From an uncultured Actinomycetota bacterium (GTDB taxonomy: Bacteria > Actinomycetota > Humimicrobiia > Humimicrobiales > Humimicrobiaceae): a stretch of 55,442 bases of DNA. Below are positions 3,371 to 39,292 of the stretch, piece by piece. How positions within the stretch are numbered: position 1 is the stretch's first letter; each line of letters begins with the position of its first letter. Location: contig CAYREF010000006.1 in the NCBI GenBank assembly GCA_964423265.1, positions 1-55,442 of the forward strand, read 5' to 3'. A program made the position numbers and the translations under genes. The notes under the pieces are model-generated. The model saw only the letters and a program-made list of their open reading frames with translations, did no database searches and was not told where the DNA came from.

Positions 3371-3395
3371 TAACTTCCCCAAGAAGTAAATATTG

Positions 3396-4448
3396 ATGAT
3401 ATTTATCGATATAATTTTCAATTATATAATCCCAATAATTTATGATAGTTTTGCCAGCCTGGTTTTTGTATTAGTTTTTCTTTCCATTTTCAGGATTAAG
3501 GATTCCAGCATTAGGATCATGTTTTTATTTTTACCGCTGGTAAAGCCTTTTGTAATACTATGCGAGAAAATAAATATTAGTAGCGGGGATTTAAGAATGC
3601 CTGTTGTTTTAGGAGGCCTAAGGTTTCCTGATCCCCATAATATAGCGGGAAGGTTTGAAAGCGAAATTGCAATATTTTCTGATTTAAACCATATAATTAT
3701 TTTCATTATTTTTTCTACCATAAGCTTTATACTTATACTCAGGTGGATGCATTTGTTCTTTTTCTACAGAAGCCTGGCCCATGAAGAGAAGGTTGGCAGG
3801 AAAGATGTGCCTGAAATATATTCAATTATAGATAATTATGCAGAGAAGATTAATATAAGAAAACCCGATGTGAGCCTAACCCACCGTAGTTATTTTTCCC
3901 CTTTTATAATAGGCACCAAAAGATACACATTAGTCTTATCTCCGGTGTTGCTAGAGCTGTTGTCTGAAGAAGAGAAGGAAACCTTAATCCAGCATGAATT
4001 ATCTCATATAAAAAGACATGATAACTTAATTGGGTGGGCAGCCCTTATATTGAGGGATATTCTTTTTTATAACCCTTTTTCTTATATAGCCTATGCTCTT
4101 ATAAGAGAGGAACAGGAAAAAGGTAGTGATAAATTATTGGTGAAATATTCAGACAAACCTGCCAAAGAGATAGCAAGCAACATATTGAATGCAATAAAGA
4201 AAATAAAATTAAGCTCAGAAAAAAGTTTTAGGACGGTTCCGGCGGAAGGCTCAAAGTTTTTCCCCATGGTGAAAATAAATATGAGAAGGATAAGAAACAG
4301 GATTAGGTTAATACTTAATGCCAATAAAGATAGGATAAGCAGTAGGTTATTTACCAAGATAGTGATGGTTGTTTTGTGGATATTTTTCTTATTAATTCAG
4401 ATATTAATAGTAGTAAGAATAGATGACAGATTAATATTCTTAAGATAA
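3396..4448 (+). CDS. M56 family (BlaR1-like) membrane metalloprotease lacking a penicillin-binding sensor domain
   Basis: Multiple N-terminal TM helices. Zinc motif 'HELSHIKRHD' (HExxH). Follows the BlaI gene by about 25 nt. The protein is only about 350 aa and ends in a TM helix, so no PBP-like sensor domain is present. The track start at 3393 is TTG; the ATG is at 3396. Confidence 0.75.
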   Translation: MIFIDIIFNYIIPIIYDSFASLVFVLVFLSIFRIKDSSIRIMFLFLPLVKPFVILCEKINISSGDLRMPVVLGGLRFPDPHNIAGRFESEIAIFSDLNHIIIFIIFSTISFILILRWMHLFFFYRSLAHEEKVGRKDVPEIYSIIDNYAEKINIRKPDVSLTHRSYFSPFIIGTKRYTLVLSPVLLELLSEEEKETLIQHELSHIKRHDNLIGWAALILRDILFYNPFSYIAYALIREEQEKGSDKLLVKYSDKPAKEIASNILNAIKKIKLSSEKSFRTVPAEGSKFFPMVKINMRRIRNRIRLILNANKDRISSRLFTKIVMVVLWIFFLLIQILIVVRIDDRLIFLR

Positions 4449-4495
4449 ACACTTTGACTTATATTCTTTTTATAATTTTTTTTTATATATTATTT

Positions 4496-4504
4496 TGCTA
4501 TAAT
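4496..4504 (+). promoter_or_regulatory. Putative extended -10 promoter element (TGcTATAAT) for the peptide/radical SAM operon
   Basis: 'TGCTATAAT' lies 35 nt upstream of the candidate TTG start at 4539. There is no good -35. Sequence match only. Confidence 0.3.
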
Positions 4505-4538
4505 ATCCTCAATATAATTTTTGGGAAAGGGGTATTTT

Positions 4539-4664
4539 TTGAGATCAATTAATAAAACCCAGAATTTATGGAACAAGGACCAAACTTTAAAAAACCTTAA
4601 AGCGGAAGATGGTCCAATGTGTTGCTGGTTTTGGTGCTGGTTTGGCTATGCAGGTAGAAAATAG
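4539..4664 (+). CDS. Candidate RiPP precursor peptide (41 codons): leader plus Cys/Trp/Phe-rich core
   Basis: Manual translation gives (TTG)M-RSINKTQNLWNKDQTLKNLKAEDGPMCCWFWCWFGYAGRK-TAG. A GGGAAAGGGG Shine-Dalgarno lies at 4523-4532, 6 nt before the TTG. The stop at 4662-4664 is 3 nt before the ATG of the radical SAM/SPASM gene. The ORF is below the size cutoff of the supplied track. An alternative in-frame TTG at 4521 has no SD. The internal ATG at 4617 would encode only the 15-aa tail. Confidence 0.6.
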   Translation: MRSINKTQNLWNKDQTLKNLKAEDGPMCCWFWCWFGYAGRK

Positions 4665-4667
4665 TAG

Positions 4668-6026
4668 ATGGGCTTGAAGCTAAGCAAGTACAATTTTTCC
4701 AGAAAAATTAACCAAAATTATACCCTTATTAACAACACCCTAACCGGGGCAGTGGATATTATAGAAAACAGGATCTGGGATTCTGTTAGAGATCCTGCCC
4801 ATATCGGCTCCAACCCTCTCTCTAGCTTAATGGAGAGAGGGTATCTTTATTATGACCTTAAGGAAGAAGAAAAGCTATTTAAAAAGATTTTTAACAGCTA
4901 CTTAAAAAAAGCCAAGTCCAGGCCAATTAGATATGTTTTTTGTCCAACTTACCAGTGTAATCTCAATTGTTCTTACTGTTTTGAAAAAGCTCTACCGCAA
5001 AAATCAATGGACACCAAAATGCTGGAAAGGGCCATAAAAGCTGCAGAGATTATATCAGAAAACCATTCAAACAGGATGGAAGCAGTAGAGCTATTTGGAG
5101 GTGAACCGCTGCTTCTAAAATGTAAGCTGTTAGTTGAAAAGATTTTAGAATTTGCGGCCAGTAAAGATACCATTATAACTATTGTAACCAATGGAGTAAA
5201 AGTCCATAGATTTATTGATATTTTAAAACCGTATAGAGAAAATATTGAAATGCTGCAGATTACAATAGACGGTCCCAGCCAAATACATGACAAAAGGAGA
5301 AAATACCGAACAGGAAGGGGAAGCTTCAGTGAAATAGTAAATAGCATAAGACTGCTGTTAGAAAACAGGATAAACATCAATGTGCGGGTAAACATAGACA
5401 AGTCCAATATTGAATCATTGCCCGACCTTTACCATTTTATTGATAGGCAGGGTTGGCTTAAGCACCCAAATTTTTCTATAAGGCTGGCAGAAGTTACCGA
5501 CCATAGCAGTACAGAATGTGCTGGCAATCTTATAGAGCCTGAAAAGCTATTGAAAAAGTTGATAAAAGTATATAGGGAACACCCTTATCTTGAGGACCTG
5601 TTTGGCTACTATATTTTTAAGCCGTTAAGGCATCTGCTGGACATACTTGGTGGTGCCCCCAATGTTTCACCGAAGTTTTTTAATTGTGAAAGCAATTTGC
5701 TGGAATTAAATATTTTCTGTCCTGATGGCCTAATATATGTTTGCGGAGAGTCTATTGGCAATCCCGATATGGCTATAGGCAGGTTTGATCCTTCCCTGGA
5801 ATTTTTCGGAGACAAAAAAAGCTTATGGATTGGAAGGAATGTGCTGACCCTGGAGGAATGCAGGAATTGCAAATTTGGCCCGATTTGTGGCGGAGGCTGC
5901 ATGTATTCTTCAATCCTGGTACATGGGGATTGCAGGAAGCCTGTATGTGAAAGGTATAAAGAGGTCCTAGATACATATATCGATTACAAGGGCAGCGAAA
6001 TACTAAATACGTTTTTAAGTAACTAA
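4668..6026 (+). CDS. Radical SAM/SPASM-domain peptide-modifying enzyme
   Basis: CxxxCxxC radical SAM motif 'CNLNCSYC' at nt 4956-4979. 'GGEPLL' SAM-binding block. Cys-rich C-terminal SPASM-like region ('CESN...FCPDG.IYVCGE', 'CRNCKFGPICGGGCMY', 'CRKPVCERY'). About 90 aa N-terminal to the cluster motif ('LSKYNF...LINNTLTGAVDIIE') resemble the peptide-recognition domain of sacti-/ranthipeptide synthases. Confidence 0.85.
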   Translation: MGLKLSKYNFSRKINQNYTLINNTLTGAVDIIENRIWDSVRDPAHIGSNPLSSLMERGYLYYDLKEEEKLFKKIFNSYLKKAKSRPIRYVFCPTYQCNLNCSYCFEKALPQKSMDTKMLERAIKAAEIISENHSNRMEAVELFGGEPLLLKCKLLVEKILEFAASKDTIITIVTNGVKVHRFIDILKPYRENIEMLQITIDGPSQIHDKRRKYRTGRGSFSEIVNSIRLLLENRININVRVNIDKSNIESLPDLYHFIDRQGWLKHPNFSIRLAEVTDHSSTECAGNLIEPEKLLKKLIKVYREHPYLEDLFGYYIFKPLRHLLDILGGAPNVSPKFFNCESNLLELNIFCPDGLIYVCGESIGNPDMAIGRFDPSLEFFGDKKSLWIGRNVLTLEECRNCKFGPICGGGCMYSSILVHGDCRKPVCERYKEVLDTYIDYKGSEILNTFLSN

Positions 6027-7028: not shown

Positions 7029-9065
7029 CTGCTTTCAATCGGCATAGATGTTGGCGGAACTTTTACTGATTTCGTAGTATATGACAGTAATAAGAATAAG
7101 GTAAAGGCTTTTAAGGTACTTTCCAACAAAACCCATTCCTGGAATCCGGTAATACAGGGATTAAGGGAGATAAATGCTAGTGGGAAAATAAGGGATATCA
7201 GACATGGAACCACTGTAGGAACAAATGCTATTATCGAAAGGAAGGGCAGCAAAACCGCCCTTATAACCACCAAAGGATTTAGGGACTTATTAGAAATAGG
7301 CAGGCAAAAAAGACCTGAACTTTATAACCTCCGTGGCAGAAAGCCAGAGCCATTAATTAGCAGGGATTGGCGGCTGGAGGTAGAAGAGAGGATTGATGCT
7401 AGAGGCAAAGTACTTATTCCTTTAAATGCTAATGATCTTGGAGCTGGTATAGAAAAAATTAAGCAGGGAGGTATTGAGTCCGTAGCGATTTTGTTTTTGC
7501 ATTCATATGCTAACAATAGCCACGAGAAGAAAGCCGCTAAAATTGTAAAGGATAAGTTTCCATCTGCCTATTTGGCTGTATCCTCTGAGCTTATACCTGA
7601 ATTCAGGGAATATGAGAGATTAACTACCACCGTGCTAAATGCATATTTAGGACCTGTACTGATAAATTACTTATCTAAACTAGTTAAAGGGATTAAAAAA
7701 ATTAGAAGCGGTGCCCCCATATATATTAGCCAGTCAGATGGAGGGATTAGCTCTCCCAAAAGCATTGCTAGCTTTCCTGTAAGGACTGCTTACTCTGGAC
7801 CCAGTGCAGGGGTAGTTGGTTCAGCTGCACTGGCTGAAGAAAAGAAAATAGGGAGGAACATAATCTCACTGGATATTGGTGGCACCAGTACTGATGTGGC
7901 CTTGGTAAAAGATTTTAAGCCTGCTAAAACCGTGGAAAAAGAGATTCTAGGCTTCCCCATAAAATTTCCCACTGTTGATATACTGACAATTGGGGCGGGG
8001 GGAGGTAGTATCGCATCTGTGGAATATGGCCACCTTAAGGTGGGCCCTGGAAGTGCTGGGGCAAATCCTGGCCCTGCTTGTTATAATAGAGAAGGCCGTG
8101 AGCCTACAGTAACTGATGCAAATCTTATCCTGGGGTTAATAGGCGAGGATACTATGCTGGGAAATAAGATAAGCCTGGACAGGCAAAAAGCTGAAAAAGC
8201 TATAAAGGAAAAAATCTGTTACCCTTTTGACTGGAGCATAGAAGAAGGGGCCTGGGCAATTAATAGGATAATTTCTGATAATATTTCCAATGAAATCCGC
8301 AAGATTACTTTATCTCAGGGGATAAATCCCGGAAGCTTGAAAATGGTAGCATATGGTGGGGCTGGCCCTATGCACGCTGCCGATATTTGCAGAGATCTGG
8401 GGATAGGAAATGCAGTAATTCCTGCAAATCCCGGTGTTTTTTCAGCCGCAGGCTTGTTTAGCTGTAATAAAACTATGGATTTTGTAACTGCTTATAGCAA
8501 ACATGGCCGGACCGGACTAAAAAAAGCAATAAAGGGGCTGAGTATTAAAGGCAGGCGGTGGTTTGGAAAAGAGAACATACCCAAGAGCAGCCAAAAGATG
8601 GACTTCTTTGCTGATATGAGGTACAGGGGACAGAATTATGAAATAAATGTGCCAATTCCTAGCTTAAATACGGGAAATGATAAAATTTGGAATAACCTGG
8701 TGGAAAGCTTTAATAAAAAACATTCACAGGTTTATGGCCATTTTAAAAAAGGAGCAGCTATAGAGATAGTAAATATTAGGTTAAAATGCATTGGCAGGTC
8801 AAAAATAAAAGTTAAACATAACTTTATGCAAAAGGCTAAGGGAGCGCCGATAAAGGGGTATAGGGACATTATGTTTCTGGGTTCGGGTGGAAGGATAAGG
8901 ACTCCCATATATGACAAAATGAGGATGGATGCGGCAAGAAAAATAGAGGGGCCGGCAGTTATTGAACAAGTAGATTCAACCATAGTAATACCCCCGCAAG
9001 ATTCTGCTGTAATGGGTGAGGATGGGGATCTGGTTATAAACATATTTAAGGGGCAAAATGGATAA
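7029..9065 (+). CDS. hyuA: Hydantoinase/oxoprolinase A subunit (HyuA family); start codon uncertain and non-canonical
   Basis: The frame is open from 6951. The conserved N-terminus 'GKLLSIGIDVGGTFTDFVVYD' is encoded at 7023-7085. The first ATG/GTG/TTG in frame is TTG at 7491, which is the track's start. Candidate starts are ATA 7017, CTG 7029 and ATC 7038, downstream of or overlapping GGGGGA at 7020-7025. Confidence 0.75.
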   Translation: MLSIGIDVGGTFTDFVVYDSNKNKVKAFKVLSNKTHSWNPVIQGLREINASGKIRDIRHGTTVGTNAIIERKGSKTALITTKGFRDLLEIGRQKRPELYNLRGRKPEPLISRDWRLEVEERIDARGKVLIPLNANDLGAGIEKIKQGGIESVAILFLHSYANNSHEKKAAKIVKDKFPSAYLAVSSELIPEFREYERLTTTVLNAYLGPVLINYLSKLVKGIKKIRSGAPIYISQSDGGISSPKSIASFPVRTAYSGPSAGVVGSAALAEEKKIGRNIISLDIGGTSTDVALVKDFKPAKTVEKEILGFPIKFPTVDILTIGAGGGSIASVEYGHLKVGPGSAGANPGPACYNREGREPTVTDANLILGLIGEDTMLGNKISLDRQKAEKAIKEKICYPFDWSIEEGAWAINRIISDNISNEIRKITLSQGINPGSLKMVAYGGAGPMHAADICRDLGIGNAVIPANPGVFSAAGLFSCNKTMDFVTAYSKHGRTGLKKAIKGLSIKGRRWFGKENIPKSSQKMDFFADMRYRGQNYEINVPIPSLNTGNDKIWNNLVESFNKKHSQVYGHFKKGAAIEIVNIRLKCIGRSKIKVKHNFMQKAKGAPIKGYRDIMFLGSGGRIRTPIYDKMRMDAARKIEGPAVIEQVDSTIVIPPQDSAVMGEDGDLVINIFKGQNG

Positions 9066-10686
9066 CACGGGCATTGTTGTGTTGCAGGTAATACAGAACA
9101 GGCTGAAGGCAATAGCAGAATTAATGGGACAGGTGCTGGTAAGGAGTGCTTTCTCTGCAAATATTAAAGAAAGAAGGGATTGCTCTACTGCCATATTTGA
9201 CAAGGAGGGACAGTTAATAGCCCAGGCAGAGCATATACCTTTGCATCTTGGTTCAATGTTGGGTGTGGTAAGGGAAGTTCTTAAAGAGTATGGGAAAGAT
9301 ATAAGGCAAGGAGATGTTTTTATTGCCAATGATCCCTACAAAGGGGGTACCCACTTGCCCGACATAACATTGGTCAGCCCCTTCTTTTACAGGGGAAAAC
9401 TCCAGGGCTTTGCTGCAAACATAGCCCACCACTCAGACATGGGGGGAGCTATGCCTGGGGGAATATCAGGAAATGCTAAGTCTATTTATGAGGAAGGTTT
9501 GAGAATTCCTCCCGTAAAGTTAATATACCAGGGTAGGCCGGACAAGGAATTATTGCGCCTTATTTATATAAATTGCAGGGTTCCCGGAGAGAGACAAGCA
9601 GATTTAGATGCACAAGTTGCTACCAACAAAATGGGCATCAAGCACCTAAATGAATTATGGGAAAAATACGGCTCTATAAAAATTAGCAAAGCCATAAGTG
9701 AGTGTATGGATTATACAGAGAGCAGGTTAAGGGATAAAATCAGAAATTTAAGAGATGGCACATACAAGTTTGCGGACAAACTTGATGATGACGGGGTTAC
9801 AGACAAGCCAATTGACATAAGGGTTTTAATAAATATAGAAGGGGACCGAATAGTTTTTGATTTTACTGGTACGGACCAGCAGAGCAAAGGTGCTATAAAC
9901 GTAGTAAGATCTGCTTTGGTGGCCACTATTTTTTATGTGTTAAAAGCTTTTTTTGATCCGGAACTGCCAGCAAATTCAGGGATTGAAAGGGTGATAGAAA
10001 TAAAAGTGCCTGACGGTAGCATAATAAACCCTTCCCCTGGTGCAGCAGTGGGAGCCAGGACTGATACATGCCAAAGGATTGCCGGAACTATAATTGGTGC
10101 ATTGAATAAGGCTGACTCAAATAAGGCTGTAGCTGGATCTAATGATGCTAGCACTGCAGTGGTATTTTCAGATGGCCAAACTTTTGTTTATGTGGAAGCA
10201 GTAGCTGGCGGTGCTGGTGCCTATGAAGGGGGAGATGGAATGGATGCTGTGCAAGTCCATATAACTAATACATCTAATTTGCCTATCGAAGCACTGGAAA
10301 GAGAATTTCCCATAATGGTGGAAAAATATGAGCTCATACCGGATTCAGGAGGAAGAGGAAAGTTTAGGGGAGGGTTGGGGTTGGTAAGGAGGATCAAGGT
10401 GTTGAAGGATGGAATTATTTTTTCCTCACATGGGGATAGACATAAATTTCCGCCCTGGGGGTGGAACGGGGGAATGCATGGTAAGACCGGACGGTTTTTG
10501 TTGAATAATAAAACCGTACTACCTTCAAAATCCTCAAATATCTTATTAGGCAAGGGTGATACAATTGATGTAGAAACCCCTGGTGGGGGAGGATTCATGG
10601 ACTATTCAGAAAGGGCAGAAGCTTTAATTGCTAAAGATTTAAAAGAAGGAAAAATGGTGGGGGAATATGAACAAAGAAAAAGTTAA
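9058..10686 (+). CDS. hyuB: Hydantoinase B/oxoprolinase family protein
   Basis: 'NDPYKGGTHLPDITL' and 'GGGG' C-terminal blocks typical of HyuB. 8-nt overlap with hyuA. Confidence 0.85.
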   Translation: MDNTGIVVLQVIQNRLKAIAELMGQVLVRSAFSANIKERRDCSTAIFDKEGQLIAQAEHIPLHLGSMLGVVREVLKEYGKDIRQGDVFIANDPYKGGTHLPDITLVSPFFYRGKLQGFAANIAHHSDMGGAMPGGISGNAKSIYEEGLRIPPVKLIYQGRPDKELLRLIYINCRVPGERQADLDAQVATNKMGIKHLNELWEKYGSIKISKAISECMDYTESRLRDKIRNLRDGTYKFADKLDDDGVTDKPIDIRVLINIEGDRIVFDFTGTDQQSKGAINVVRSALVATIFYVLKAFFDPELPANSGIERVIEIKVPDGSIINPSPGAAVGARTDTCQRIAGTIIGALNKADSNKAVAGSNDASTAVVFSDGQTFVYVEAVAGGAGAYEGGDGMDAVQVHITNTSNLPIEALEREFPIMVEKYELIPDSGGRGKFRGGLGLVRRIKVLKDGIIFSSHGDRHKFPPWGWNGGMHGKTGRFLLNNKTVLPSKSSNILLGKGDTIDVETPGGGGFMDYSERAEALIAKDLKEGKMVGEYEQRKS

Positions 10687-11923
10687 ACTGTTTATTACAG
10701 GCGCTATATTTGTAATTTTTATATTTAGCATATCTTGTGCTCCTGAACTACATTTTGGAGAACTGGCAATTTGCCAAGACATTGACCATGAGACAAATGA
10801 ACCCAAAGGTTCTAAGGTTTTATACAATGCAGAAGAAGAGAGTATTCACGCAACTATTTTATGCAAAGGAGCCAAAGCTAGTGATGTGTATAGTTTTAAA
10901 TGGATTAATATTACAACAGGGGAAACACTTTTAGACGAGTCATCTGAATATAAAGATGGGCGGGGTTACTTTGAAGGTTACGTGGCTTCCAGCATACATA
11001 CTACAGAAGAGGTAAAATTATTCCCACCGGGCAATTATAATGTAGAATTTTTCCATAATGGTAAACTGGAAAAAGAAAAAAGCTTTATGGTGCAGCAGCC
11101 ACAGGTAAAAATACTTGAGGTATCTTTGGCAAGTGAAACCGATATTTCTGGAGCACCGGCTAATATTACCAGGCAATTCAATGAAGGGGAAACAGTTTAT
11201 GCTTGCATTAAGAGTAATTATTTAATATCGGGAAATACAATTACAGCTAAGTGGTATTCGGAAGATGGGGAGACGGTCTTTGAAACCTCCAAAACGTTAG
11301 AAGAGGATTATTATGAAGAAAGTTATACTGTTTTTAATTTAACCAACTCGGAAGGGGTTCTTACTTCTGGAGATCATAAAGTGGAAGTTTACTTAAATGA
11401 TTCTCTCTACGACAGCTATGAATTTACCATTTCTGAATCCCTAGATTTATTTTCCACAGGCCAAACTTACATTAATGATAAATTTCAATTTAGCGTAGCT
11501 ATTCCTGATGGTTGGTCTTATAGTGAAAATGAAAATGATGAAAAGATACAAGTAGGCTTACAGACAGAAGAAAAGATACCAGTAGGTTTTTCTCTAATTG
11601 CAAGCACAGCATCCGATAAACCTCAAAAAGAGGACTATTCATCTTTCTCAAATACGGTTTTGCAAGGGATGACAGCCGGCAGTAATTGGAGCAAGACTAA
11701 CCAAGTAGAAAATGAGTTTAAGACTGCCAATGTCATCAAAGTTGATGAATTTGTTTATACCTACCATGATCCGGATGGCAATGAATGGATAATGGTAACA
11801 GCTTTTGCCGAAAACAATGATGTGTTATATATAATTTTTGGGATGGCAAGATATGATTATTATGAAATGGCAGATGACATATATCACGGAATGCTAAGCT
11901 CCCTAGAATTTAACGGCTCCTAA
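10667..11923 (+). CDS. Predicted lipoprotein of unknown function (paralog of 31591..32811)
   Basis: Signal peptide with lipobox 'IFSISC'. Clear by-eye homology to the 31591 ORF ('C.PE..FG.L.IC......EP.G......E.SI.A.......A.D...FKWI', 'PG.Y.VEF.HNG'). Confidence 0.6.
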   Translation: MNKEKVKLFITGAIFVIFIFSISCAPELHFGELAICQDIDHETNEPKGSKVLYNAEEESIHATILCKGAKASDVYSFKWINITTGETLLDESSEYKDGRGYFEGYVASSIHTTEEVKLFPPGNYNVEFFHNGKLEKEKSFMVQQPQVKILEVSLASETDISGAPANITRQFNEGETVYACIKSNYLISGNTITAKWYSEDGETVFETSKTLEEDYYEESYTVFNLTNSEGVLTSGDHKVEVYLNDSLYDSYEFTISESLDLFSTGQTYINDKFQFSVAIPDGWSYSENENDEKIQVGLQTEEKIPVGFSLIASTASDKPQKEDYSSFSNTVLQGMTAGSNWSKTNQVENEFKTANVIKVDEFVYTYHDPDGNEWIMVTAFAENNDVLYIIFGMARYDYYEMADDIYHGMLSSLEFNGS

Positions 11924-11994
11924 TCTTTTTTGGTTTGAAACATTTTCCTTTTTATTTATATAATAAAAACACAAAATATAAATTTTAATAAAAA

Positions 11995-13023
11995 ATGGCA
12001 AATAAAAAAGAACTAAGCATCAAGGAAATAGCCAAACTGGCAGGAGTTTCCAAAGCTACTGTTTCAAATGCTTTAAGCGGAAAAAGACATGTAAAACCCT
12101 CTACTAAAGAGAAAATCCTCAAGCTGGTTAAAAAATATAACTATCGCCCTAGTGCAATTGCAAGGGGTTTGTGCCAGAAAAAAACCAGCATGATCGGGGT
12201 TATAATAGCAGATATTTATAACCCGTATTATTCGGAAGTTATAAAAGGGATAGAGGCAGAGGTCAAAAAAAATGACTATATATTAATAGTGGGCTCAACT
12301 AATTATAAAATAGAAAATGAGATAAAGGAGTTTGAAAGGTTAAATTCCTTATGCATTGACGGATTTATATTTATAAGCTCCCAAAATGACCAAAAGAGGA
12401 TAGAAGAAATAAATACCAGGAATGTGCCTATTGTATTCATAGATAGGGAGATTAAAAATTATTCCTCTGTACTGATAAATAATAAAAAGGCTATGGAAAA
12501 AGCAGTGGCTTTTTTACAGGAAAAGGGCCATAAAAAAATAGGCTATGTCGGGTCTAAGGGTTATACCTATAATATAGACCACCGCTACAAGGGCTATTTA
12601 TCAGGATTGAAAAAGAATAATTTAAACTGTGACAAAAACCTTATCTTCCTCAGCGAAAAAATGGCCACAAATGAATTTAATATAGGCTATAGGCTTATAG
12701 ACAGTTATATTAAAAAAAATGAAGAATTAGGATTTACGGCACTGATAAGCCAGGCTGATATAATTGCTTTTGGCATTATAAGAGCTTTACAGGATAATGG
12801 GTTTAATGTTCCTGAGGATGTCTCTGTAGTAGGTTTTGACAATATCCACTCTTCAAGATTTTCCAATCCAAGACTCACCACTGTAAACCAGCCCAAAAGG
12901 AAGATGGGAAAGATAGGGGCAAGGATACTGCTTAAAGAGCTTTCAAACGGCAAAAAGGCAAAAGACTTAGTGTACTTGGATGCTGTTGTGGTGGAAAGGG
13001 AATCAACTATTATGGTTAATTAG
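11995..13023 (+). CDS. LacI family transcriptional regulator
   Basis: N-terminal HTH 'IKEIAKLAGVSKATVSNALSG' and a periplasmic-binding-like C-terminal domain ('VGFDNI'). Confidence 0.85.
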   Translation: MANKKELSIKEIAKLAGVSKATVSNALSGKRHVKPSTKEKILKLVKKYNYRPSAIARGLCQKKTSMIGVIIADIYNPYYSEVIKGIEAEVKKNDYILIVGSTNYKIENEIKEFERLNSLCIDGFIFISSQNDQKRIEEINTRNVPIVFIDREIKNYSSVLINNKKAMEKAVAFLQEKGHKKIGYVGSKGYTYNIDHRYKGYLSGLKKNNLNCDKNLIFLSEKMATNEFNIGYRLIDSYIKKNEELGFTALISQADIIAFGIIRALQDNGFNVPEDVSVVGFDNIHSSRFSNPRLTTVNQPKRKMGKIGARILLKELSNGKKAKDLVYLDAVVVERESTIMVN

Positions 13024-14718
13024 ATGGCAGAAAAAATAAAATGCAGGGGCATGGATATAGATGTTGGATTGCTGGCAGCTGAGATATTGGAAACCCAAAC
13101 TAAACTCCAGCCAGAATTAAAACAAAAATATTCAAAAAAAGATTTTGAAGTTTGCAAAAAGGATATAGGCTACCATCTTAATTACTTATGCCAAGCTCTT
13201 TCTTGCGATAGCCTTCCTTTATTTCTGGACTATGTAAATTGGGCTACAGTTATGCTGGCTGAACGTGGCGTGCATGCAAGTGATTTTGTTAAGAACCTGG
13301 AAAGCATGATTAAGGTTTTCAGGCAAAGATTGCTTGGTGCCCTGGGGACAGACGCTATAAGTTATATAAAGCAAGCCATCAGGATAGTCAAGGAAGACAG
13401 GGCTAAGGCGGAAACTTTTATATCCCCCGGTAATAAATATTATAACCTGGCTAAGAATTACCTTGATGCTATCCTGGAGGGTGAAAAAGAAAAAGCCAGT
13501 TACCTGATATCAGAAGCAATAAAAGGGGAGGCAAGGCTAGAAGATATTTACCTCTATGTATTCCAGCCCGGCCAGTATGAGCTAGGCAGGCTATGGCAAA
13601 CAAGGAAAATAGATGTGGCAACTGAACATTACGGGACTGCAATTACCCATTCTATAATGGCCCAGCTGTATCCCCGGATTTTATCTTCTGAGAAGATGGG
13701 CTTAAGGTTTCTTGGAGCTTGCATAAATGGGGAACAGCATGAAATAGGCATAAGGATGCTCACAGACCTTTTAGAATTGAAGGGCTGGGACACTTATTAT
13801 TTAGGCTCCAATACCCCACCTGGAAGCATTATAAAAAAGATTAAGGAAAGGGAAATAGACCTGGCAGGGATATCTGCAACCATGACCTATAATCTGAGCA
13901 ATGTTGAGGATTTGATTAAAAAAATCCGGTCTGAGGCAGGGGATGTAAAAATAATGGTTGGCGGGTACCCATTTAGGGTTGATGAAAACCTATGGAAGGC
14001 AATAGGTGCAGACGGCTATGGTAGGGATGCCGGGCAAGCCTCCAGGCAGGCAACAAGCTTGGTAAAAAAAGGTAAAATAGCCAGGAAAGCAAAGGCAGGC
14101 CAAAGTTTTGTCAGCAGCAGCAAGACAGAAGCACAAAACAAGAAAAGGCTGTATTCCAAGCTGGCTGCTATCAACAATGAACTTTTAACTGCCCAGAGGA
14201 AATTAGAGAAAAAAAATATAGAACTTGAAAAATTAAACCAAGAGCTGGAGGAGATAGCCATTAGAGATCCTTTAACCAAACTTTATAACCGCAGGTTTTT
14301 CTACCAAAAAATTGAAGAAGAAATAAATAGGGCAAAGAGGTTAAATTACGGCATGGTGGTTGCTATGGTTGATATAAATAATTTTAAGCAGGTTAATGAC
14401 AGCCATGGTCATGAAGCGGGGGACAAGGTGCTAAAGAAATTTGCAAGCATTGTTGAAAATAATTTGAGGAAAGGGATAGATTCAGCGTACCGGTGGGGAG
14501 GGGATGAATTTTTAATTTTGCTGGTAGACAGCAATCTGGAAAAAGCAGAAAAAGTTTTAAAAAGATTGGATAGTAACTTAAGGAGTTATCTATCGGAGGT
14601 TTCACTTTCTTATGGTTTTGAAAAAATAAGCAGGCTGGGCAGGGTGGATATGGAAAAAATCATAAAAATTGTGGATAATAAGATGTATGAATATAAAAAA
14701 AAGCAGAAAAAAATATAG
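13024..14718 (+). CDS. Cobalamin-binding (CarH-like) sensor domain fused to a GGDEF diguanylate cyclase
   Basis: W-x9-EH ('WQTRKIDVATEH', nt 13594-13629). E-x-H-x-x-G ('EQHEIG', nt 13732-13749) followed by the Rossmann-like B12 block 'GSNTP...GISATM'. A coiled-coil linker. 'RWGGDEFLILL' (GGDEF at nt 14497-14511). Confidence 0.8.
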   Translation: MAEKIKCRGMDIDVGLLAAEILETQTKLQPELKQKYSKKDFEVCKKDIGYHLNYLCQALSCDSLPLFLDYVNWATVMLAERGVHASDFVKNLESMIKVFRQRLLGALGTDAISYIKQAIRIVKEDRAKAETFISPGNKYYNLAKNYLDAILEGEKEKASYLISEAIKGEARLEDIYLYVFQPGQYELGRLWQTRKIDVATEHYGTAITHSIMAQLYPRILSSEKMGLRFLGACINGEQHEIGIRMLTDLLELKGWDTYYLGSNTPPGSIIKKIKEREIDLAGISATMTYNLSNVEDLIKKIRSEAGDVKIMVGGYPFRVDENLWKAIGADGYGRDAGQASRQATSLVKKGKIARKAKAGQSFVSSSKTEAQNKKRLYSKLAAINNELLTAQRKLEKKNIELEKLNQELEEIAIRDPLTKLYNRRFFYQKIEEEINRAKRLNYGMVVAMVDINNFKQVNDSHGHEAGDKVLKKFASIVENNLRKGIDSAYRWGGDEFLILLVDSNLEKAEKVLKRLDSNLRSYLSEVSLSYGFEKISRLGRVDMEKIIKIVDNKMYEYKKKQKKI

Positions 14719-15586
14719 CAATATTTTAATTTTTTTCATAGCATTTCTTATCTCCATTATTACCATCGCTGGCATCAGTTCATGTCAGAAAAGCAAAAGC
14801 GACGCTGGAGCAGATAAAATAATAATAGCTGCTACTATTTACCCCCTGTATGACATTGCAAAAAATATAGTAGGCAACAAGGGAGAGGTTTATTACATTA
14901 TAAATCCTGGAGAAAGTCCACATACTTTTGAATTTACTTCAGGCAGGATAAAGAAAATACACGATGCTGATATTGCCATTAAAATTGGCCTGGGTCTTGA
15001 TGATTGGATAAATGATTCTATAAAAAGCATTGGGACCACCCTGGACATATATGCTGTAAACAAAGGTATAGAATTAATAGATGGAAATCCTCATATATGG
15101 CTTTCCCTTGCCAACGGGCAGGTAATATCCGAAAACCTGTGTAGTGTACTGGTAAAAGAATTTCCGCAGTATAGCGAGGATTTTAGGGAAAACTGTGCCA
15201 GCTATATTAAAAAGCTGGAATCTTTAAATTCTAGCTATAAAGAGGAAGCTAAGAATTTTAACAAAAAGGAATTCATAGCTTTCCATGATGCCTGGAGCTA
15301 TTTTTCCAAAGACCTGGGGATAAAGCAAGTTATGGCTATTGAGCCTTTTCCGGGAAAAGAGCCCACCCCTGATCATCTAATAGAAATACAGAAAGTAATA
15401 AAAGAATATAATATCAGCACTATTTTTATCGAGCCCCAGCTCTCTCCGGAAATAGTGGAGTTCTTAGCAGAAGACATGGACTTAAAAATTTTAATTCTAG
15501 ACCCGTTGGGAGGAGTTGAAGGGAGGCAAACGTACACTGAGCTGATGGCTTTTAATTTCAACCAATTTAGAAAAACGCTAAAATAA
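14687..15586 (+). CDS. Metal ABC transporter substrate-binding lipoprotein (ZnuA/TroA family)
   Basis: Lipobox 'IAGISSC'. 'PHIWLS' and 'FHDAWSYF' motifs of cluster-9 SBPs. The ATG at 14687 is preferred over the track's TTG at 14669. No cognate permease or ATPase in the window. Confidence 0.75.
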   Translation: MNIKKSRKKYSNILIFFIAFLISIITIAGISSCQKSKSDAGADKIIIAATIYPLYDIAKNIVGNKGEVYYIINPGESPHTFEFTSGRIKKIHDADIAIKIGLGLDDWINDSIKSIGTTLDIYAVNKGIELIDGNPHIWLSLANGQVISENLCSVLVKEFPQYSEDFRENCASYIKKLESLNSSYKEEAKNFNKKEFIAFHDAWSYFSKDLGIKQVMAIEPFPGKEPTPDHLIEIQKVIKEYNISTIFIEPQLSPEIVEFLAEDMDLKILILDPLGGVEGRQTYTELMAFNFNQFRKTLK

Positions 15587-24507: not shown

Positions 24508-24894
24508 ATGAATAAATATAGAATGACGCCCCAGAGAAGAGTTATATTGGAAGAGCTTAAAAAAACAAAAAAGCATCCTAGCGCCAATGAAGTATATCAT
24601 GCAGTTAGGGAAAGATTGCCTGATATTAGTATGGGTACTGTTTACAGGAACCTAGAAATCCTTACTCAGCAAGGAGAAGCCCAAAAAATTACCAATGGGG
24701 GAAAAAAGAAAAGGTATGACGGCAATGCCGGAAAGCATTTCCATGTAAAATGCACTAGTTGTGGGAGGGTAGATGATCTCCCGGGTAATTTAGTAGATTT
24801 GATAGAGAAAAATATTGATATAAACTGCAGTTATAAAATTACAGGGTATAACCTCTTTTTTTATGGATTATGCCCTGATTGTAAAAAAAGATAA
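24508..24894 (+). CDS. perR: Fur family peroxide-responsive repressor (PerR-like)
   Basis: '[12 protein letters not shown].....HPSANEVY..V......[13 protein letters not shown]' and two C-terminal CxxC pairs ('CTSCG', 'CPDCK'). Heads an oxidative-stress operon. Confidence 0.8.
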
Positions 24895-24904
24895 AGGAGA
24901 AGAG

Positions 24905-25546
24905 ATGGAAGAAAAGATACCATTAATAGGAGAGGCATTTCCAGAAATAGAAGTAGGCACTACCCATGGCCAAATTGAGCTGCCCCTTGATTTTTCAGGG
25001 AAGTGGTTTATTTTATTCAGTCACCCAGCAGATTTTACGCCGGTGTGCACTACTGAATTTGTTGCTTTCCAGAAAAGGTTTGATGATTTCAAAAAGCAAA
25101 ACTGTGAGCTTATAGGGTTAAGTATTGATCAGGTATTCTCTCATATAAAATGGGTACAGTGGATAAAGGAAAACCTGGATGTAGAAATTAAATTTCCAGT
25201 GATTGCTGATGATACCGGTAGGGTGGCTAAAATGCTGGGTTTAATTCACCCAAACAAGGGCACCAACACTGTAAGGGCTGTATTTATAGTAGATCCCCAT
25301 TCAAAAATCAGGGCCATACTTTATTATCCCCAGGAACTTGGCAGGAATATGGATGAAATACTGAGGATGGTCAAAGGGTTCCAAGTAGCTGATAAAAATG
25401 GAGTAGCTATGCCAGCAAATTGGCCCAATAATGAATTGGTGGGAGAAGAAGTGATTGTACCACCTCCAAAAGATGAAAAGAGTGCAAAAGAAATTACTAA
25501 AAAATATGAATGCTTTGACTGGTGGTTCTGCCACAGGAAGGTTTAA
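24905..25546 (+). CDS. Peroxiredoxin (Prx6/archaeal-type, AhpC/TSA family)
   Basis: '[13 protein letters not shown]' peroxidatic-Cys motif and C-terminal 'CFDWWFC' (C-x5-C). The ATG at 24905 is preceded by AAAGGAGAAG. Confidence 0.85.
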
Positions 25547-25558
25547 AGGAGAAAAAAA

Positions 25559-25933
25559 ATGACTGAAAAATTAGAAATTTACAAGTGTGAAGTATGCGGC
25601 AATATTGTAGAATTGGTTCATGAAGGCAAAGGAGAGCTAGTATGCTGCGGAGAACCTATGAAACACTATAAGGAAAATACTGTAGATGCCGCAAAGGAAA
25701 AGCATGTACCGGTAACGGAAAAAGAAGGGAATATGGTTAAGATAAAAGTGGGGAGTGTTGCCCACCCCATGGAAGAGGACCATTATATTGAATGGATTGA
25801 AATAATTGATGGAAATAAGGCTTACAGGACATTTTTGAGTCCTGGGCAATCTCCGGAAGCAGGATTTTGTCTGGATTCAGACAGTTTTGTTGTCCGGGAA
25901 TATTGTAATATACATGGATTATGGAAAGGATAG
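25559..25933 (+). CDS. dfx: Desulfoferrodoxin (2Fe superoxide reductase)
   Basis: N-terminal desulforedoxin-like 'CEVCGN....CCGEPM' centre I, plus 'KHVPV' and 'H..E..H' centre II elements and 'CN.HGLW'. Confidence 0.85.
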
Positions 25934-26464
25934 GTGGAAAAAATGATAAGCAAGAAACTGGAAAATGCAATAAATGACCAGCTAAATGCAGAGCTTTATT
26001 CTGCATATTTGTACCTTTCAATGGCTGCTTATTTTGAGTCAAAAAATTTAAGCGGCTTTGCGAACTGGATGCGCATGCAGGCACAGGAAGAGCAAGTGCA
26101 TGCCATGAAGTTCTTTGATTTTTTAAATGAACGTGGAGGTAGGGTAATCCTCAAGGATATTAAGGCATCACAGTCTGAATGGAAATCCCCTTTAGATGTA
26201 TTTAAAAATGTCTATAGCCATGAGCAAAAAGTAACCAGTCTGATCAATAATCTAGTAAACATAGCTGTTAAGGAAAATGATCATGCTACTAATAATTTCC
26301 TGCAATGGTATGTGGCAGAACAAGTAGAAGAAGAATCCTCAGCGGATGAAATTGTTAAAAAACTGGAACTGGTAGGGGATTCAGGGCATGCATTATTTAT
26401 GGTGGACCAGGAATTAGGTAAAAGGGTATTTACCCAGCCTGGAACTTCAGAAACAGCAGAATAA
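25934..26464 (+). CDS. ftnA: Ferritin (non-heme, bacterial type)
   Basis: '[23 protein letters not shown]' and '[13 protein letters not shown]' ferroxidase-centre blocks. GTG at 25934 or ATG at 25943 as the start. Confidence 0.85.
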
Positions 26465-26482
26465 AAAAATAAAAGAAAATGT

Positions 26483-26509
26483 ATGGCCGCGCTTAACCAG
26501 CGCGGCCAT
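26483..26509 (+). terminator. GC-rich stem-loop (possible attenuator/terminator or RNA-stability element) between ftn and the flavodiiron gene
   Basis: ATGGCCGCGCT-taacc-AGCGCGGCCAT forms a perfect 11-bp stem. It is the most GC-rich local structure I saw in this AT-rich window. An A-rich tract lies upstream and only a weak U-tract follows on the + strand. Confidence 0.35.
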
Positions 26510-26523
26510 ATTGTTAGGAGGTA

Positions 26524-27705
26524 ATGCTAATGGATGAAAAATTAAAAGAAGGAGTTTTTTACGTGGGGGCAGGAGATCCGGATAGGAGATTATTTGATGA
26601 GTTGATACCCCTTCCTGATGGCACTAGCTATAATTCTTATTTAATAAAAGGTAGCAATAAGGTAGCATTAATAGACACTGTTGATCCCGCAAAAAGCGAA
26701 ACACTTTTAAACAATTTAGAAAAAATTGGGGTTGATAAAATAGATTTTATTGTGTCTAATCATGCTGAACAGGACCATTCAGGCTCAATACCGGCAATCC
26801 TTAAGGAGTTTCCGGAAGCAAAGGTGGTAACTAATTCGAAGTGTAAATCCATGCTGGAGGACTTATTATTGATAGATTCAAATAAATTTAAGGTAATTGA
26901 AGAAGGCGATACAATATCTTTGGGCGGCAAAACCTTGAAATTTATAATAGCGCCTTGGGTTCATTGGCCTGAAACTCAGTTTACTTATCTGGTGGAGGAT
27001 AAAATTTTATTTACCTGTGACTTTCTAGGATCCCATTACGCTTCGGCGGACCTTTTTGTCCAAGATAAGGATAAAACCCTAGAAACTGCTAAAAGGTATT
27101 ATGCGGAGATAATGATGCCCTTTGCAAATATTATTAAAAAAGACCTGGAAAAAATAGAAGGCTTAGATATTGACATAGTTGCTCCAAGCCACGGGCTACT
27201 TTACAAGGATTATGAGTTCATTATCGAAGCTTACAGGGATTGGATTTCAAATAATTCCAAAAATGAAGTGGTAATTCCATTTGTTTCCATGCATGGAAGC
27301 ACTGGGAAAATGGTAGAACATTTTTCAAATAAACTGAAGGCAATGGGTATAAGTGTCAAGCTGTTTAACCTGACCGGAGTTGATCTAGGGGAACTGGCAA
27401 TGTCTTTGGTTGATGCTGCAACGGTAGTTCTGGCCACACCTACCGTATTGGCAGGCCCCCACCCCAGCGCTGTTTATGCTGCTTATCTATTAAAAGCTTT
27501 AAGGCCTAAGATAAGGCATGTATCTCTGATTGGCTCTTATGGCTGGGGCGGAAAAACAGTAGAGACTATTTCCGGGTTGCTATCAGCATTAAAAGTAGAA
27601 TTAATAGACCCGGTACTAATTAAAGGATACCCAGAGAATAAAGATCTTGCATTGCTTGATAAATTGGCTGATAGGATAGAGGAGAAACACAAGGATCTTC
27701 TTTGA
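26524..27705 (+). CDS. fprA: Flavodiiron protein (FprA/rubredoxin:oxygen oxidoreductase type)
   Basis: Metallo-beta-lactamase-like 'NHAEQDHSGS' diiron motif plus a C-terminal flavodoxin-like domain. AGGAGG Shine-Dalgarno upstream. Alternative ATG at 26530. Confidence 0.85.
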   Translation: MLMDEKLKEGVFYVGAGDPDRRLFDELIPLPDGTSYNSYLIKGSNKVALIDTVDPAKSETLLNNLEKIGVDKIDFIVSNHAEQDHSGSIPAILKEFPEAKVVTNSKCKSMLEDLLLIDSNKFKVIEEGDTISLGGKTLKFIIAPWVHWPETQFTYLVEDKILFTCDFLGSHYASADLFVQDKDKTLETAKRYYAEIMMPFANIIKKDLEKIEGLDIDIVAPSHGLLYKDYEFIIEAYRDWISNNSKNEVVIPFVSMHGSTGKMVEHFSNKLKAMGISVKLFNLTGVDLGELAMSLVDAATVVLATPTVLAGPHPSAVYAAYLLKALRPKIRHVSLIGSYGWGGKTVETISGLLSALKVELIDPVLIKGYPENKDLALLDKLADRIEEKHKDLL

Positions 27706-31590: not shown

Positions 31591-32811
31591 ATGTTAAAAA
31601 AAATTTTCGTCATCCCCATTATTTTAATTCTTGCTTTCTTCTCTTTTTCATGTCTTCCCGAACCAGGATTTGGGAAATTAGTTATATGCAGCTCAGTAAA
31701 TCAGGATACATATGAACCGGTTGGAATGAGTGAAGAATTTAGCATGGATGAGGATAGTATTTATGCAAATGTTAAGGTAGAAAATGTGTATGCAGGAGAT
31801 AGTTGGACTTTTAAGTGGATTAGACAAAAAGATAATATGGTAATTGCCCAGAAAAGCGGTAATTACATGCCAGGGAGAAATAATTATATTAACGGATATA
31901 TTGTTAACCGTCTTATTCCCAAAGAAAATTCATTTATAGCAGAACCTGGCAGCTACTTGGTTGAGTTTTACCATAATGGGGATAAGACTAGCTCTGCAGA
32001 ATTTGAAATTAAACAGCCAAAATTTGAAATCATTGGAGCCAGCTTATGCTCAGAGGTAGGGGAGGAGGGAAAACCTGTAAATTCAAAACAAAAATTTTAT
32101 GTTAATGAAAGCATATATTTATCAGTCCGGCTAAATTGCCTTCTGGAAGGAAAAAGCATTAAATCTGAATGGTTTACCGGAGAGAATAGGATAGATGAAA
32201 TAAAAATAGAATTTGATAAAAATTATTTTTTTCCTATTTACAAGGTATTTAGCCTTGGCAAAACAAGGCTCCCGTTAGGAAGGTATACAGTTAATTTATA
32301 TAAAGATAGTTTGTTGTATAAAAGCTATAATTTTGAGTTGGATGTAGATATGGCTGATATGAAGCACTACGAAAATGTTGAAGGGAAATTCAGTTTTAAC
32401 TACCCTAATTTTTTAAAAATAAATAAAAATGAAGGCGAAAACCGGCTGGAATTGTCTTTATCACCTGGTAGCCAGAGCTACCAGCTAACTCTATGGATTC
32501 TAAATGAGGGATATTTTCCAGAAAATACTAACTGGGAAGAGTCTAATGAAGATGTATTGCTAAAGAATTTACTTTCCGGATATGATTTGGAAATTGTTTC
32601 TAAGAATGTAGGTACGAGAAATGGATGCATAGAATATTTATATGAATTTAAGAATATGCAGGATTTTTGGTACCTTAATATATGTTATTTGGAAGCTGAA
32701 AAAAATTTGATAATTTTTAGCGGATTTTCAGATGAAAATTACAGGTATGAATTAAATAAGGTTTTTGGGCTGATATTCGATTCTTTTAATTTTAGCCAAA
32801 ACGGCTTTTAA
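31591..32811 (+). CDS. Predicted lipoprotein of unknown function (paralog of 10667..11923)
   Basis: Lipobox 'FFSFSC' and the same two-repeat N-terminal architecture as the 10667 ORF. Confidence 0.6.
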   Translation: MLKKIFVIPIILILAFFSFSCLPEPGFGKLVICSSVNQDTYEPVGMSEEFSMDEDSIYANVKVENVYAGDSWTFKWIRQKDNMVIAQKSGNYMPGRNNYINGYIVNRLIPKENSFIAEPGSYLVEFYHNGDKTSSAEFEIKQPKFEIIGASLCSEVGEEGKPVNSKQKFYVNESIYLSVRLNCLLEGKSIKSEWFTGENRIDEIKIEFDKNYFFPIYKVFSLGKTRLPLGRYTVNLYKDSLLYKSYNFELDVDMADMKHYENVEGKFSFNYPNFLKINKNEGENRLELSLSPGSQSYQLTLWILNEGYFPENTNWEESNEDVLLKNLLSGYDLEIVSKNVGTRNGCIEYLYEFKNMQDFWYLNICYLEAEKNLIIFSGFSDENYRYELNKVFGLIFDSFNFSQNGF

Positions 32812-35131: not shown

Positions 35132-35140
35132 GGAAAAGAA

Positions 35141-36496: not shown

Positions 36497-36526
36497 TATT
36501 TATAATATAATCAGAAAAAGAGAAAA

Positions 36527-37471: not shown

Positions 37472-37474
37472 ATT

Positions 37475-38002: not shown

Positions 38003-38014
38003 GAGGTCTTGCTT

Positions 38015-39257: not shown

Positions 39258-39292
39258 TTGTAGAAATTGTGTGTAAGGAGAATTGATAAATT

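Follow-up and report, generated by a model that had tools for sequence, protein, structure and literature searches.

Cobalamin (B12)-based photoreceptors with an enzymatic output are a recent addition to the known light sensors, and they are sought as optogenetic tools for green and red light. The photoglobin family was defined computationally in 2021, and fusions of photoglobin and cobalamin-binding domain (CBD) to GGDEF, histidine kinase, PAS, GAF, SpoIIE, and MerR domains were reported in the same study (Schneider et al. 2021, PMC8717448). Proteins combining a CBD with a photoglobin were later named photocobilins, and SasPcob from Saccharothrix syringae (PDB 8J2W/8J2X) and AbDPcob from an Acidimicrobiaceae bacterium (PDB 8J2Y) were characterized, the latter being the first photocobilin-cyclase (Zhang et al. 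2024, PMC10979010). Both bind adenosylcobalamin (AdoCbl) and undergo CarH-like spectral changes in green light, and in photocobilins carrying biliverdin, cleavage of the Co-C bond is set off by red light as well (PMC10979010). In AbDPcob, AdoCbl lowers diguanylate cyclase (DGC) activity, and light raises the apparent kcat more than 10-fold; the protein is dimeric throughout and expands when lit (PMC10979010). Its domain order, according to a follow-up paper, is DGC, then CBD, then biliverdin-binding domain. Here, we analyzed a 55,442-nucleotide stretch of DNA (the window; contig CAYREF010000006.1) from an uncultured Actinomycetota bacterium, and we describe one of its genes, whose product is predicted to carry, from the N to the C terminus, a photoglobin, a CBD, a linker, a coiled coil, and a GGDEF domain.

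Judging from sequence and by analogy with the characterized members, we consider this protein, with a probability of roughly 0.75, to be an AdoCbl- and probably bilin-binding one-component photoreceptor of the photocobilin type that controls its C-terminal DGC. The sequence-only reading that preceded this work had predicted B12- and possibly light-gated synthesis of cyclic di-GMP (c-di-GMP), and the domains, the signature residues, the folds, and the relative AbDPcob all argue for such a role. However, the photocobilin-DGC class was predicted in 2021 and characterized in 2024, and the present gene is a member of it with a different domain order; its novelty is therefore below what that reading implied. 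What this member adds is the mirrored order of globin, CBD, signaling helix, and GGDEF, a globin with the full set of bilin-binding residues and a Cys at the phycobiliprotein attachment position, and a probably anaerobic host from a microbial mat, which raises the questions of an O2-free bilin source and of an oxygen-dependent light state. The residual novelty lies in the N-terminal-globin subgroup, in the source of a chromophore without O2, and in a possible covalent attachment of the bilin.

The evidence for the cobalamin-binding part comes from motifs, profiles, and folds that agree with each other. A regular-expression search of the translation found exactly one W-x9-EH motif (W191-QTRKIDVAT-E201-H202), exactly one [DE]xHxxG motif (E237-Q-H239-E-I-G242), and exactly one GGDEF motif (residues 492-496, with R490-W491 directly before it, giving RWGGDEF), the first two at the residues where the sequence-only reading had placed them. 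The three Pfam domains which that reading expected were also assigned, namely, B12-binding_2 (PF02607) at residues 143-215 (E 1.7e-14), B12-binding (PF02310) at residues 228-337 (E 4.2e-25), and GGDEF (PF00990) at residues 412-562 (E 2.9e-37; 128 bits against a cutoff of 24). Across 40 aligned homologues, W191, E201, H202, H239, E240, G242, G261, and P265 are invariant, and the Gly of GxxH (G236) is kept in 33 sequences. The pairwise HMMER alignment with SasPcob (8J2W, E 1.5e-19) pairs 'ELGRLWQTRKIDVATEHYGTAIT' with 'EIGVLWQANRWSVAQEHAATAIS', 'INGEQHEIG' with 'LDGEWHALP', and 'LGSNTP' with 'LGASVP', so that W191, E201-H202, and H239 are aligned to Trp61, Glu71-His72, and His108, residues that were equated with the CarH motif by the authors of that structure (Zhang et al., Nat Commun 2024, PMC10979010). 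Furthermore, the signature of light-responsive CBDs given by the SignatureFinder study (GxxW, EH, GxxH, and GxxxP) is present in all four elements, as G188RLW, E201H, G236EQH, and G261SNTP. A coincidental W-x9-EH spacing, which the sequence-only reading had considered, is not what we found, since the motif lies inside the cap domain, is invariant among the homologues, and coincides with the SasPcob residues. On this sequence evidence, the motifs are a genuine light-responsive CBD signature and not chance matches.

The predicted structure points in the same direction. Residues 1 to 350 of the full-length AlphaFold2 (AF2) model are confident, with a predicted local distance difference test score (pLDDT) mostly above 90, and Foldseek placed the CBD model closest to CtMerR (8JBS/8JBT), SasPcob (8J2W/8J2X; root-mean-square deviation [rmsd] of 1.7 Å over about 200 columns), AbPcob (8J2Y), and TtCarH among PDB entries, with 5C8x and 8C3x entries also among the matches. 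A few corrinoid proteins (MttC and 4JGI) and methionine synthase are interleaved with the photoreceptors among these best fold matches. The full published signature and the best structural matches to photoreceptor CBDs thus support the CarH-type AdoCbl light-sensing CBD proposed earlier. The NCBIfam CarH model covered the CBD part only, with 44 bits where its cutoff is 400, and Pfam matched no MerR or helix-turn-helix domain in the 564-residue protein; a predicted helix at residues 368-414 and the GGDEF domain stand in place of the MerR domain, as had been supposed. At the position of TtCarH His132, the protein has Gln192, as SasPcob does (Gln in 32 of the 40 homologues), and a bis-His light state is consequently not expected.

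Another candidate is a corrinoid methyl carrier of the MtbC/MtgC type, fused by chance to a GGDEF domain, and some homologues are named 'methanogenic corrinoid protein MtbC1' in databases. We rejected this candidate as extremely improbable. The NCBIfam matches to MtbC, pyl_corrinoid, and MtgC are far below their cutoffs (58.7 versus 350, 55.2 versus 215, and 48.3 versus 370 bits), and the non-photoreceptor corrinoid protein 4JGI, aligned over the same stretch, lacks both the Trp and the EH of the cap motif. Moreover, no methyltransferase partner genes lie nearby in the neighborhoods of this gene, of its 88%-identical orthologue (locus L001), or of a 48%-identical orthologue (locus L002). For annotation, the present analysis indicates that family proteins labeled 'diguanylate cyclase' or 'MtbC1 corrinoid protein' are probably photoreceptors.

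The helical N-terminal domain of about 170 residues, previously left without an assigned function, resolves into a photoglobin of 132 residues and the first helices of the B12 cap. Taken alone, residues 1-145 gave marginal matches in the PDB (8J2W globin region, E 0.055; ApcF, E 0.17), and PF00502 (phycobilisome protein) matched the present sequence with an E value of 0.084. The family context is clearer: many homologues of about 350 residues have a precomputed PF00502 match before the B12 domains, 26 of 31 family members match PF00502 (best E 4.5e-10), and a profile of the 31 N-terminal domains retrieved allophycocyanin beta (E 3.6e-8), the C-terminal globin of SasPcob (2.6e-7), CpcA (7e-7), and AbPcob (3e-5) from the PDB. 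Modeled separately with AF2, residues 1-132 reached a pLDDT of 92, and the top Foldseek matches of this model are phycobiliproteins and SasPcob (8J2X/8J2W), with TMq values of 0.66 to 0.71. From these profiles and models, the N-terminal domain is assigned as a photoglobin, a globin of the bilin-binding type, and because it is fused to a CBD, the protein is assigned as a photocobilin.

The residues of the putative bilin site are conserved as well. D47 is invariant in the 40 homologues and pairs with the conserved Asp of helix 3 (photoglobin D49, SasPcob Asp270), which in SasPcob is the main residue binding biliverdin, and the likewise invariant W73 pairs with SasPcob Trp296, which touches the biliverdin D ring and the corrin (Zhang et al. 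2024, PMC10979010). C44 pairs with the Cys of the CLRD motif in allophycocyanin beta and ApcF, and the Cys of the CxRD motif is the published bilin attachment point in phycobiliproteins. This position is Cys in half of the homologues (20/40) and Ser in 15/40, in line with published descriptions of a 'CXQD' motif and of a position taken by Cys, Ser, or Thr. It is conceivable, although rather unlikely, that the Cys44 subgroup binds its bilin covalently in the manner of phycobiliproteins, that an alternative or external bilin is used in an anaerobe unable to employ O2-dependent heme oxygenase, and that, if the photolysed cobalamin also needs oxygen to mature, green light, red light, and redox state are integrated into one c-di-GMP output. 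If so, this covalent bilin with light-redox integration would help to place an anaerobe within a lit microbial mat.

In the output region, NCBIfam assigned TIGR00254 with 131 bits against a cutoff of 37. The catalytic-type residues D450, N458-D459, D467, R490, GGDEF, K558, and K562 are present; the roles of D450, N458-D459, D467, R490, K558, and K562 are those we presume from PleD. The GGDEF domain matched SiaD (7E6G), DgcR (6ZXM), and a phytochrome-DGC (5LLW) in the PDB, and the alignments run through the preceding helix into the GGDEF domain (query residues 346-524 with SiaD and 359-558 with 5LLW), as would be expected of a dimeric stalk holding two GGDEF domains in position. In this respect, the protein resembles the coiled-coil sensor DGCs (phytochrome-DGC 5LLW/6ET7, DgcR 6ZXM, and SiaD 7E6G), whose sensors, however, are a phytochrome, a receiver, or a partner protein; in our protein, sensor and stalk are set apart by a variable linker. 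The linker differs in length among homologues, and the pLDDT drops from about 88 to about 48 across residues 341-370. In the best heptad phase of the helix at residues 368-414, 9 of the 15 a/d positions are Leu, Ile, Val, or Met.

The helix carries a strongly conserved motif, LNNELxxAQRxLxKKNIEL. In the form LNNELxxAQRxLxKKNxEL, it is common to photoglobin-CBD proteins with GGDEF and with histidine kinase outputs (including P0016, P0123, P0124, P0173, and P0213), and it stands before HisKA in the homologues with histidine kinase or PAS-kinase outputs. This recurrence suggests that the sensor and the helix behave as a portable, swappable cassette with a family-specific signaling helix. In one pairwise comparison with the 88%-identical orthologue, with small counts, every folded domain is under purifying selection (dN/dS, the ratio of nonsynonymous to synonymous substitution rates, of 0.15 to 0.27), and the linker evolves almost neutrally (0.85).

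By analogy with AbDPcob, SasPcob, and CarH, from which we infer cofactor binding, photochemistry, sign of regulation, and physiological output, the protein might work as follows. The cap and the Rossmann module would bind AdoCbl base-off/His-on through His239, with the adenosyl group placed under Trp191 and Glu201-His202. The N-terminal photoglobin would pack against the corrin edge, and its Asp47 and Trp73 may keep a linear tetrapyrrole in place, with a possible covalent bond to Cys44; a bilin in this domain would extend the sensitivity from green to red light. Light would cleave the Co-C bond, the adenosyl group would depart, the cap helix bearing Glu-His would move, and the interface at which the B12 domains dimerize would be altered or loosened. 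The signal would then pass through the flexible linker and the conserved parallel coiled coil to change how the two C-terminal GGDEF domains are presented to each other. For two GTP molecules to be joined into c-di-GMP, two GGDEF domains have to come together. The likeliest sign, as in AbDPcob, would be inhibition in the dark and activation by light, with more c-di-GMP in the light, and the presumed output would be an altered surface attachment or motility of a mat-dwelling anaerobe under light. The sign nevertheless remains uncertain, owing to the mirrored domain order and the variable linker; the latter would agree better with tethering, or with a sensor that docks on the stalk or the cyclase.

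The setting of the host, a lit mat with anoxic layers, makes light sensing plausible. The sequences of the window were traced to microbial-mat metagenomes, with one run containing 100% of the sampled words and three more runs of the same study containing 43 to 72%, and the nearest genome record is a metagenome-assembled genome (MAG) labeled Actinomycetota bacterium. The GC content of the window is 32 to 39%. At 34103-40168 (+ strand), a gene for an ApbE flavin transferase precedes a complete Rnf-type operon (RnfC-like, RnfD, FMN-binding RnfG, two Rnf-Nqr membrane subunits, and an RnfB-like ferredoxin). Such an operon marks an anaerobic energy metabolism based on ferredoxin, so the organism is probably anaerobic. 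A cluster of oxidative-stress genes is found at 24863-27705 (+ strand), encoding a 1-Cys/AhpC-type peroxiredoxin, a ferritin, and an ODP-family di-iron protein with a metallo-beta-lactamase fold. Together with a radical SAM/SPASM maturase, the Rnf and oxidative-stress genes fit an anaerobe that periodically meets oxygen in the mat.

Two other readings of the sensor depend on this setting. In the first, the protein would be a dark sensor of cobalamin status, in which AdoCbl binding is itself the signal and c-di-GMP tracks B12 in a corrinoid-sharing community. The lower DGC activity of AbDPcob with AdoCbl bound than in the apo form would agree with this, as would an anaerobic-looking organism with an Rnf operon and a window without cob or btu genes, whose owner may depend on external B12. 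We nevertheless regard it as unlikely. The W-x9-EH cap and the full signature separate light-responsive from other CBDs, a fused globin of the bilin-binding type is hard to explain without light, and the habitat is a microbial mat. Bound AdoCbl is, besides, intrinsically photolabile, and the roles in light and in B12 status are not mutually exclusive. A separate B12-related signal, the only other one in the window, comes from a 225-residue protein (40234-40914, - strand) that weakly matches the activation domain of B12-dependent methionine synthase (Met_synt_B12, E 5e-8).

In the second, the protein would combine light with redox or O2 sensing: cob(II)alamin would remain after anaerobic photolysis, and the full signaling state would require an oxidant. 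TtCarH needs oxygen for effective monomerization, CtMerR lit anaerobically shows a local change and no monomerization, Q192 replaces the His that forms the bis-His state, as in SasPcob, and the peroxiredoxin, ferritin, and ODP-type genes suggest exposure to O2. On the other hand, SasPcob reaches a water- or hydroxide-ligated light state without large rearrangements, and the proposal, drawn by analogy, is very unlikely as an account of the protein; like the other rivals, it is compatible with the main reading.

Several observations weigh against the photocobilin-cyclase reading proposed here, which is itself a prediction from sequence and models alone. The GGDEF part of the full-length AF2 model was mis-modeled as helices, with an alignment depth of 3 sequences in this region, and being unreliable, it allows no structural conclusion on the geometry between sensor and cyclase. 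The mirrored domain order, compared with the sole tested DGC fusion, means that the sign and the route of signaling may differ, and the variable, near-neutral linker argues against a rigid helical relay. Rfam found no cobalamin riboswitch and no other family in the whole window, and Pfam identified none of about 40 other open reading frames (ORFs) as a cob, cbi, or btu gene or as one for heme oxygenase or bilin reductase; the 55 kb of the window are a part of the genome. Canonical biliverdin synthesis needs O2, which puts the bilin source in question for an anaerobic-looking organism.

The cyclase domain itself also has unusual features. D450-I-N452 stands in place of the usual DxD, and the canonical RxxD I-site five residues upstream of GGDEF is replaced by R482-K-G-I-D486, in which, according to the HMMER alignment, one inserted residue shifts the Arg from its place in the RxxD of SiaD. 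The I-site is optional in the GGDEF family. These substitutions, together with Lys562 where Arg is usual, could indicate a catalytically weak or inactive GGDEF domain in a protein that serves as a light-regulated scaffold or receptor. This appears highly improbable, because GGDEF, R490, N458, D459, D467, and K558 are intact, and because the Pfam score is well above its cutoff and the dN/dS of this domain is as low as that of the CBD. Furthermore, DxN and RKGID are kept in P0003, the 48%-identical orthologue (RKGID in P0002 as well), and for this reason they look like lineage features of a functional variant rather than decay.

Among the characterized proteins, AbDPcob is the closest in composition, with a CarH-type CBD (W-x9-EH and E/DxH), a phycobiliprotein-like globin, and a GGDEF domain in one polypeptide, and both source organisms are labeled Actinomycetota. 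Its CBD aligned with an E value of 5.7e-12, with an identity of about 20 to 24% in the Foldseek alignment, and its globin was retrieved by the photoglobin profile mentioned above. In contrast, its DGC-CBD-globin order with a long flexible linker is the reverse of the globin-CBD-linker-coiled coil-DGC order found here, and AbPcob has a His instead of the key biliverdin Asp and binds biliverdin poorly (PMC10979010), whereas D47 is kept and accompanied by C44 in the present protein. SasPcob is the best CBD match of solved structure by sequence, with Trp, Gln, Glu-His, and His at identical positions and the equivalents of globin Asp270 and Trp296 kept; unlike our protein, it stands alone without an enzyme output, has its globin C-terminal to the CBD, and has Thr at the position of Cys44. 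The CBD is thus N-terminal to the globin in the characterized members and C-terminal to it here. This order does not exclude membership among the photocobilins, since predicted members comprise groups with an N-terminal and groups with a C-terminal B12 domain, with or without an output domain (PMC10979010). CarH and LitR, the MerR-family AdoCbl photoreceptor repressors, share the CBD fold and the AdoCbl-pocket motif and differ from the present protein in their MerR DNA-binding domain, in the His132 of TtCarH replaced here by Gln192, and in lacking the enzymatic output found here.

Residues 1-350 belong to the family of standalone N-terminal-photoglobin-CBD proteins of about 350 residues (PMC8717448), which share 35 to 49% identity, the same order, and the invariant residues with our protein and mostly lack an output domain. 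No experimental or later work on this N-terminal-globin subgroup was found in the literature searched. A homologue search against 1.84 billion representatives at 50% identity gave 1478 matches at an E value of 1e-30 or less. The best 150 of these are mostly standalone globin-CBD proteins and include three GGDEF fusions in the same order (P0003, with 48% identity over the full length, P0121, and P0139), a CBD-GGDEF protein without globin (P0122), and at least 10 histidine kinase fusions. The globin-CBD-GGDEF architecture is therefore rare but recurrent. A scan of genome contigs with terminal peptide patterns, which were uninformative, returned the 88%-identical MAG and unrelated GGDEF proteins only and says little on phyletic spread. 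The coordinates of the gene, its parts, and its immediate neighbors are given in Table 1.

Table 1. Features of the photocobilin-type cyclase gene and the adjoining genes, in window coordinates. The dN/dS values come from one pairwise comparison with the 88%-identical orthologue, with small counts.
Feature	Residues	Position	Strand	dN/dS	Basis or remark
LacI-family regulator		11995..13023	+		Stop abuts cyclase start (TAG-ATG); in L001, not L002
Whole gene, photoglobin-CBD-linker-coiled coil-GGDEF protein	1-564	13024..14718	+	0.21	ORF, ATG start, 564 aa
Photoglobin (phycobiliprotein-like globin)	1-132	13024..13419	+	0.27	Family profile, PF00502, AF2, Foldseek
C44-K-K-D47, equivalent to CxRD/CxQD bilin motif	44-47	13153..13164	+		Homologue and PDB alignments
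W73, equivalent to SasPcob Trp296	73	13240..13242	+		Invariant in 40 homologues; pairs with Trp of 'FVTWTAEVL' in 8J2W
CBD (cap and Rossmann-type domain)				0.15	
Four-helix cap (B12-binding_2)	~140-219	13441..13680	+		PF02607; model helices 140-151, 155-167, 172-192, and 198-213, pLDDT >90
W191-x9-E201-H202 adenosyl-pocket motif, G188xxW immediately upstream	191-202	13594..13629	+		Regular expression, homologue and SasPcob alignments
Rossmann-type B12-binding domain	228-337	13705..14034	+		PF02310, Foldseek
E237-x-H239-x-x-G242 loop, predicted lower-axial His239; G236xxH and G261xxxP265 in or near	237-242	13732..13749	+		Regular expression, alignments
Variable, basic, low-confidence linker	338-367	14035..14124	+	0.85	pLDDT, homologue lengths, dN/dS
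Conserved coiled coil/signaling helix	368-414	14125..14265	+	0.18	Single predicted helix, heptads, dN/dS
GGDEF diguanylate cyclase domain	415-562	14266..14709	+	0.15	PF00990; TIGR00254
G492-G-D-E-F active-site motif, R482-K-G-I-D486 upstream at RxxD I-site place	492-496	14497..14511	+		Regular expression, alignment
ZnuA-family metal-binding lipoprotein gene		14687..15586	+		Pfam ZnuA, E 5.7e-64; overlaps cyclase by 32 nt if likely ATG at 14687 is used

How much of the gene neighborhood is shared depends on the distance of the relative. The abutment of a LacI-type regulator, reported in the sequence-only reading, was confirmed at the level of the sequence, but its conservation was not: it is shared with the 88%-identical relative and missing at the 48%-identical orthologue locus. 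The link between the LacI gene and the cyclase is thus probably recent, and the regulator was rejected as a conserved functional partner. A promoter-like site (11/12) was found at 11935-11964, and no terminator-like site was found on the + strand between 11995 and 16761, from the LacI gene to the M23 gene. Downstream, the ZnuA-like gene begins within the 3' end of the cyclase gene at each of the three loci, with overlaps of 32 nt here (from the likely ATG at 14687) and of 32 and 29 nt in L001 (11664-12563) and L002 (11661-12551). Given this conserved overlap and the lack of a + strand terminator-like site, the cyclase and the ZnuA-like gene are likely cotranscribed. The ZnuA-like protein matched ZnuA, AztC, and MntC in NCBIfam, all below cutoff, and its signal peptide ends in a lipobox-like ISSC.

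After the ZnuA-like gene, M23/PcsB-like and M48 peptidase genes follow, in an order kept at the 48%-identical orthologue locus, which suggests an operon link of the photoreceptor with a metal-uptake or cell-wall gene set. The 88%-identical relative has the same neighbors as here, including the hydantoinase and LacI genes. The L002 locus has neither the LacI nor the hydantoinase genes; it keeps the flavodoxin-DUF454 pair on the upstream side and, on the downstream side, the genes for ZnuA-like, M23/PcsB-like, M48, and DUF5667 proteins. The hydantoinase A gene (7044-9065, + strand) is intact and 91% identical from 7044 to the 673-residue L001 protein. Its first in-frame ATG/GTG/TTG lies at 7491, so that the N-terminal 150 codons have no canonical start, and the protein called in L001 starts with Ile, which suggests either a non-canonical start codon or a problem with the gene call. 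Between hydantoinase B and LacI, also in L001, an ORF of more than 400 residues (10667-11923, + strand) matches no Pfam or NCBIfam family; its N-terminal part includes a hydrophobic segment with a Cys.

Elsewhere in the window, a protein at 53570-55442 (+ strand, more than 624 residues, running off the window) had been read as a PAS/HD-GYP phosphodiesterase. Its C-terminal HD_5 domain of the HD-GYP type was assigned (E 8.7e-35), whereas its long N-terminal region matched no Pfam family, PAS included, at an E value of 1e-5 or less. From its domain content, this protein is a possible c-di-GMP phosphodiesterase partner of the cyclase. On the far side of the cyclase gene, a BlaR1-like M56 peptidase gene and a radical SAM/SPASM maturase gene lie at 3393-6026 (+ strand), the latter with CefB and Clo7bot-type maturases of ribosomally synthesized and posttranslationally modified peptides as its best NCBIfam matches, below cutoff. 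The radical SAM gene (4668-6026) was considered as a ChuW-like anaerobic heme-degrading enzyme, and this was rejected, as NCBIfam points to a SPASM-type peptide maturase and the gene does not lie beside the L002 orthologue. An ORF of more than 400 residues at 31591-32811 (+ strand) has no Pfam or NCBIfam match. Finally, the window contains two paralogous PolX-like genes (DNA polymerase beta thumb and PHP domains, about 576 residues each) at 46693-48426 (- strand) and 50281-52011 (+ strand), with a DUF763 gene and a 216-residue ORF between them.

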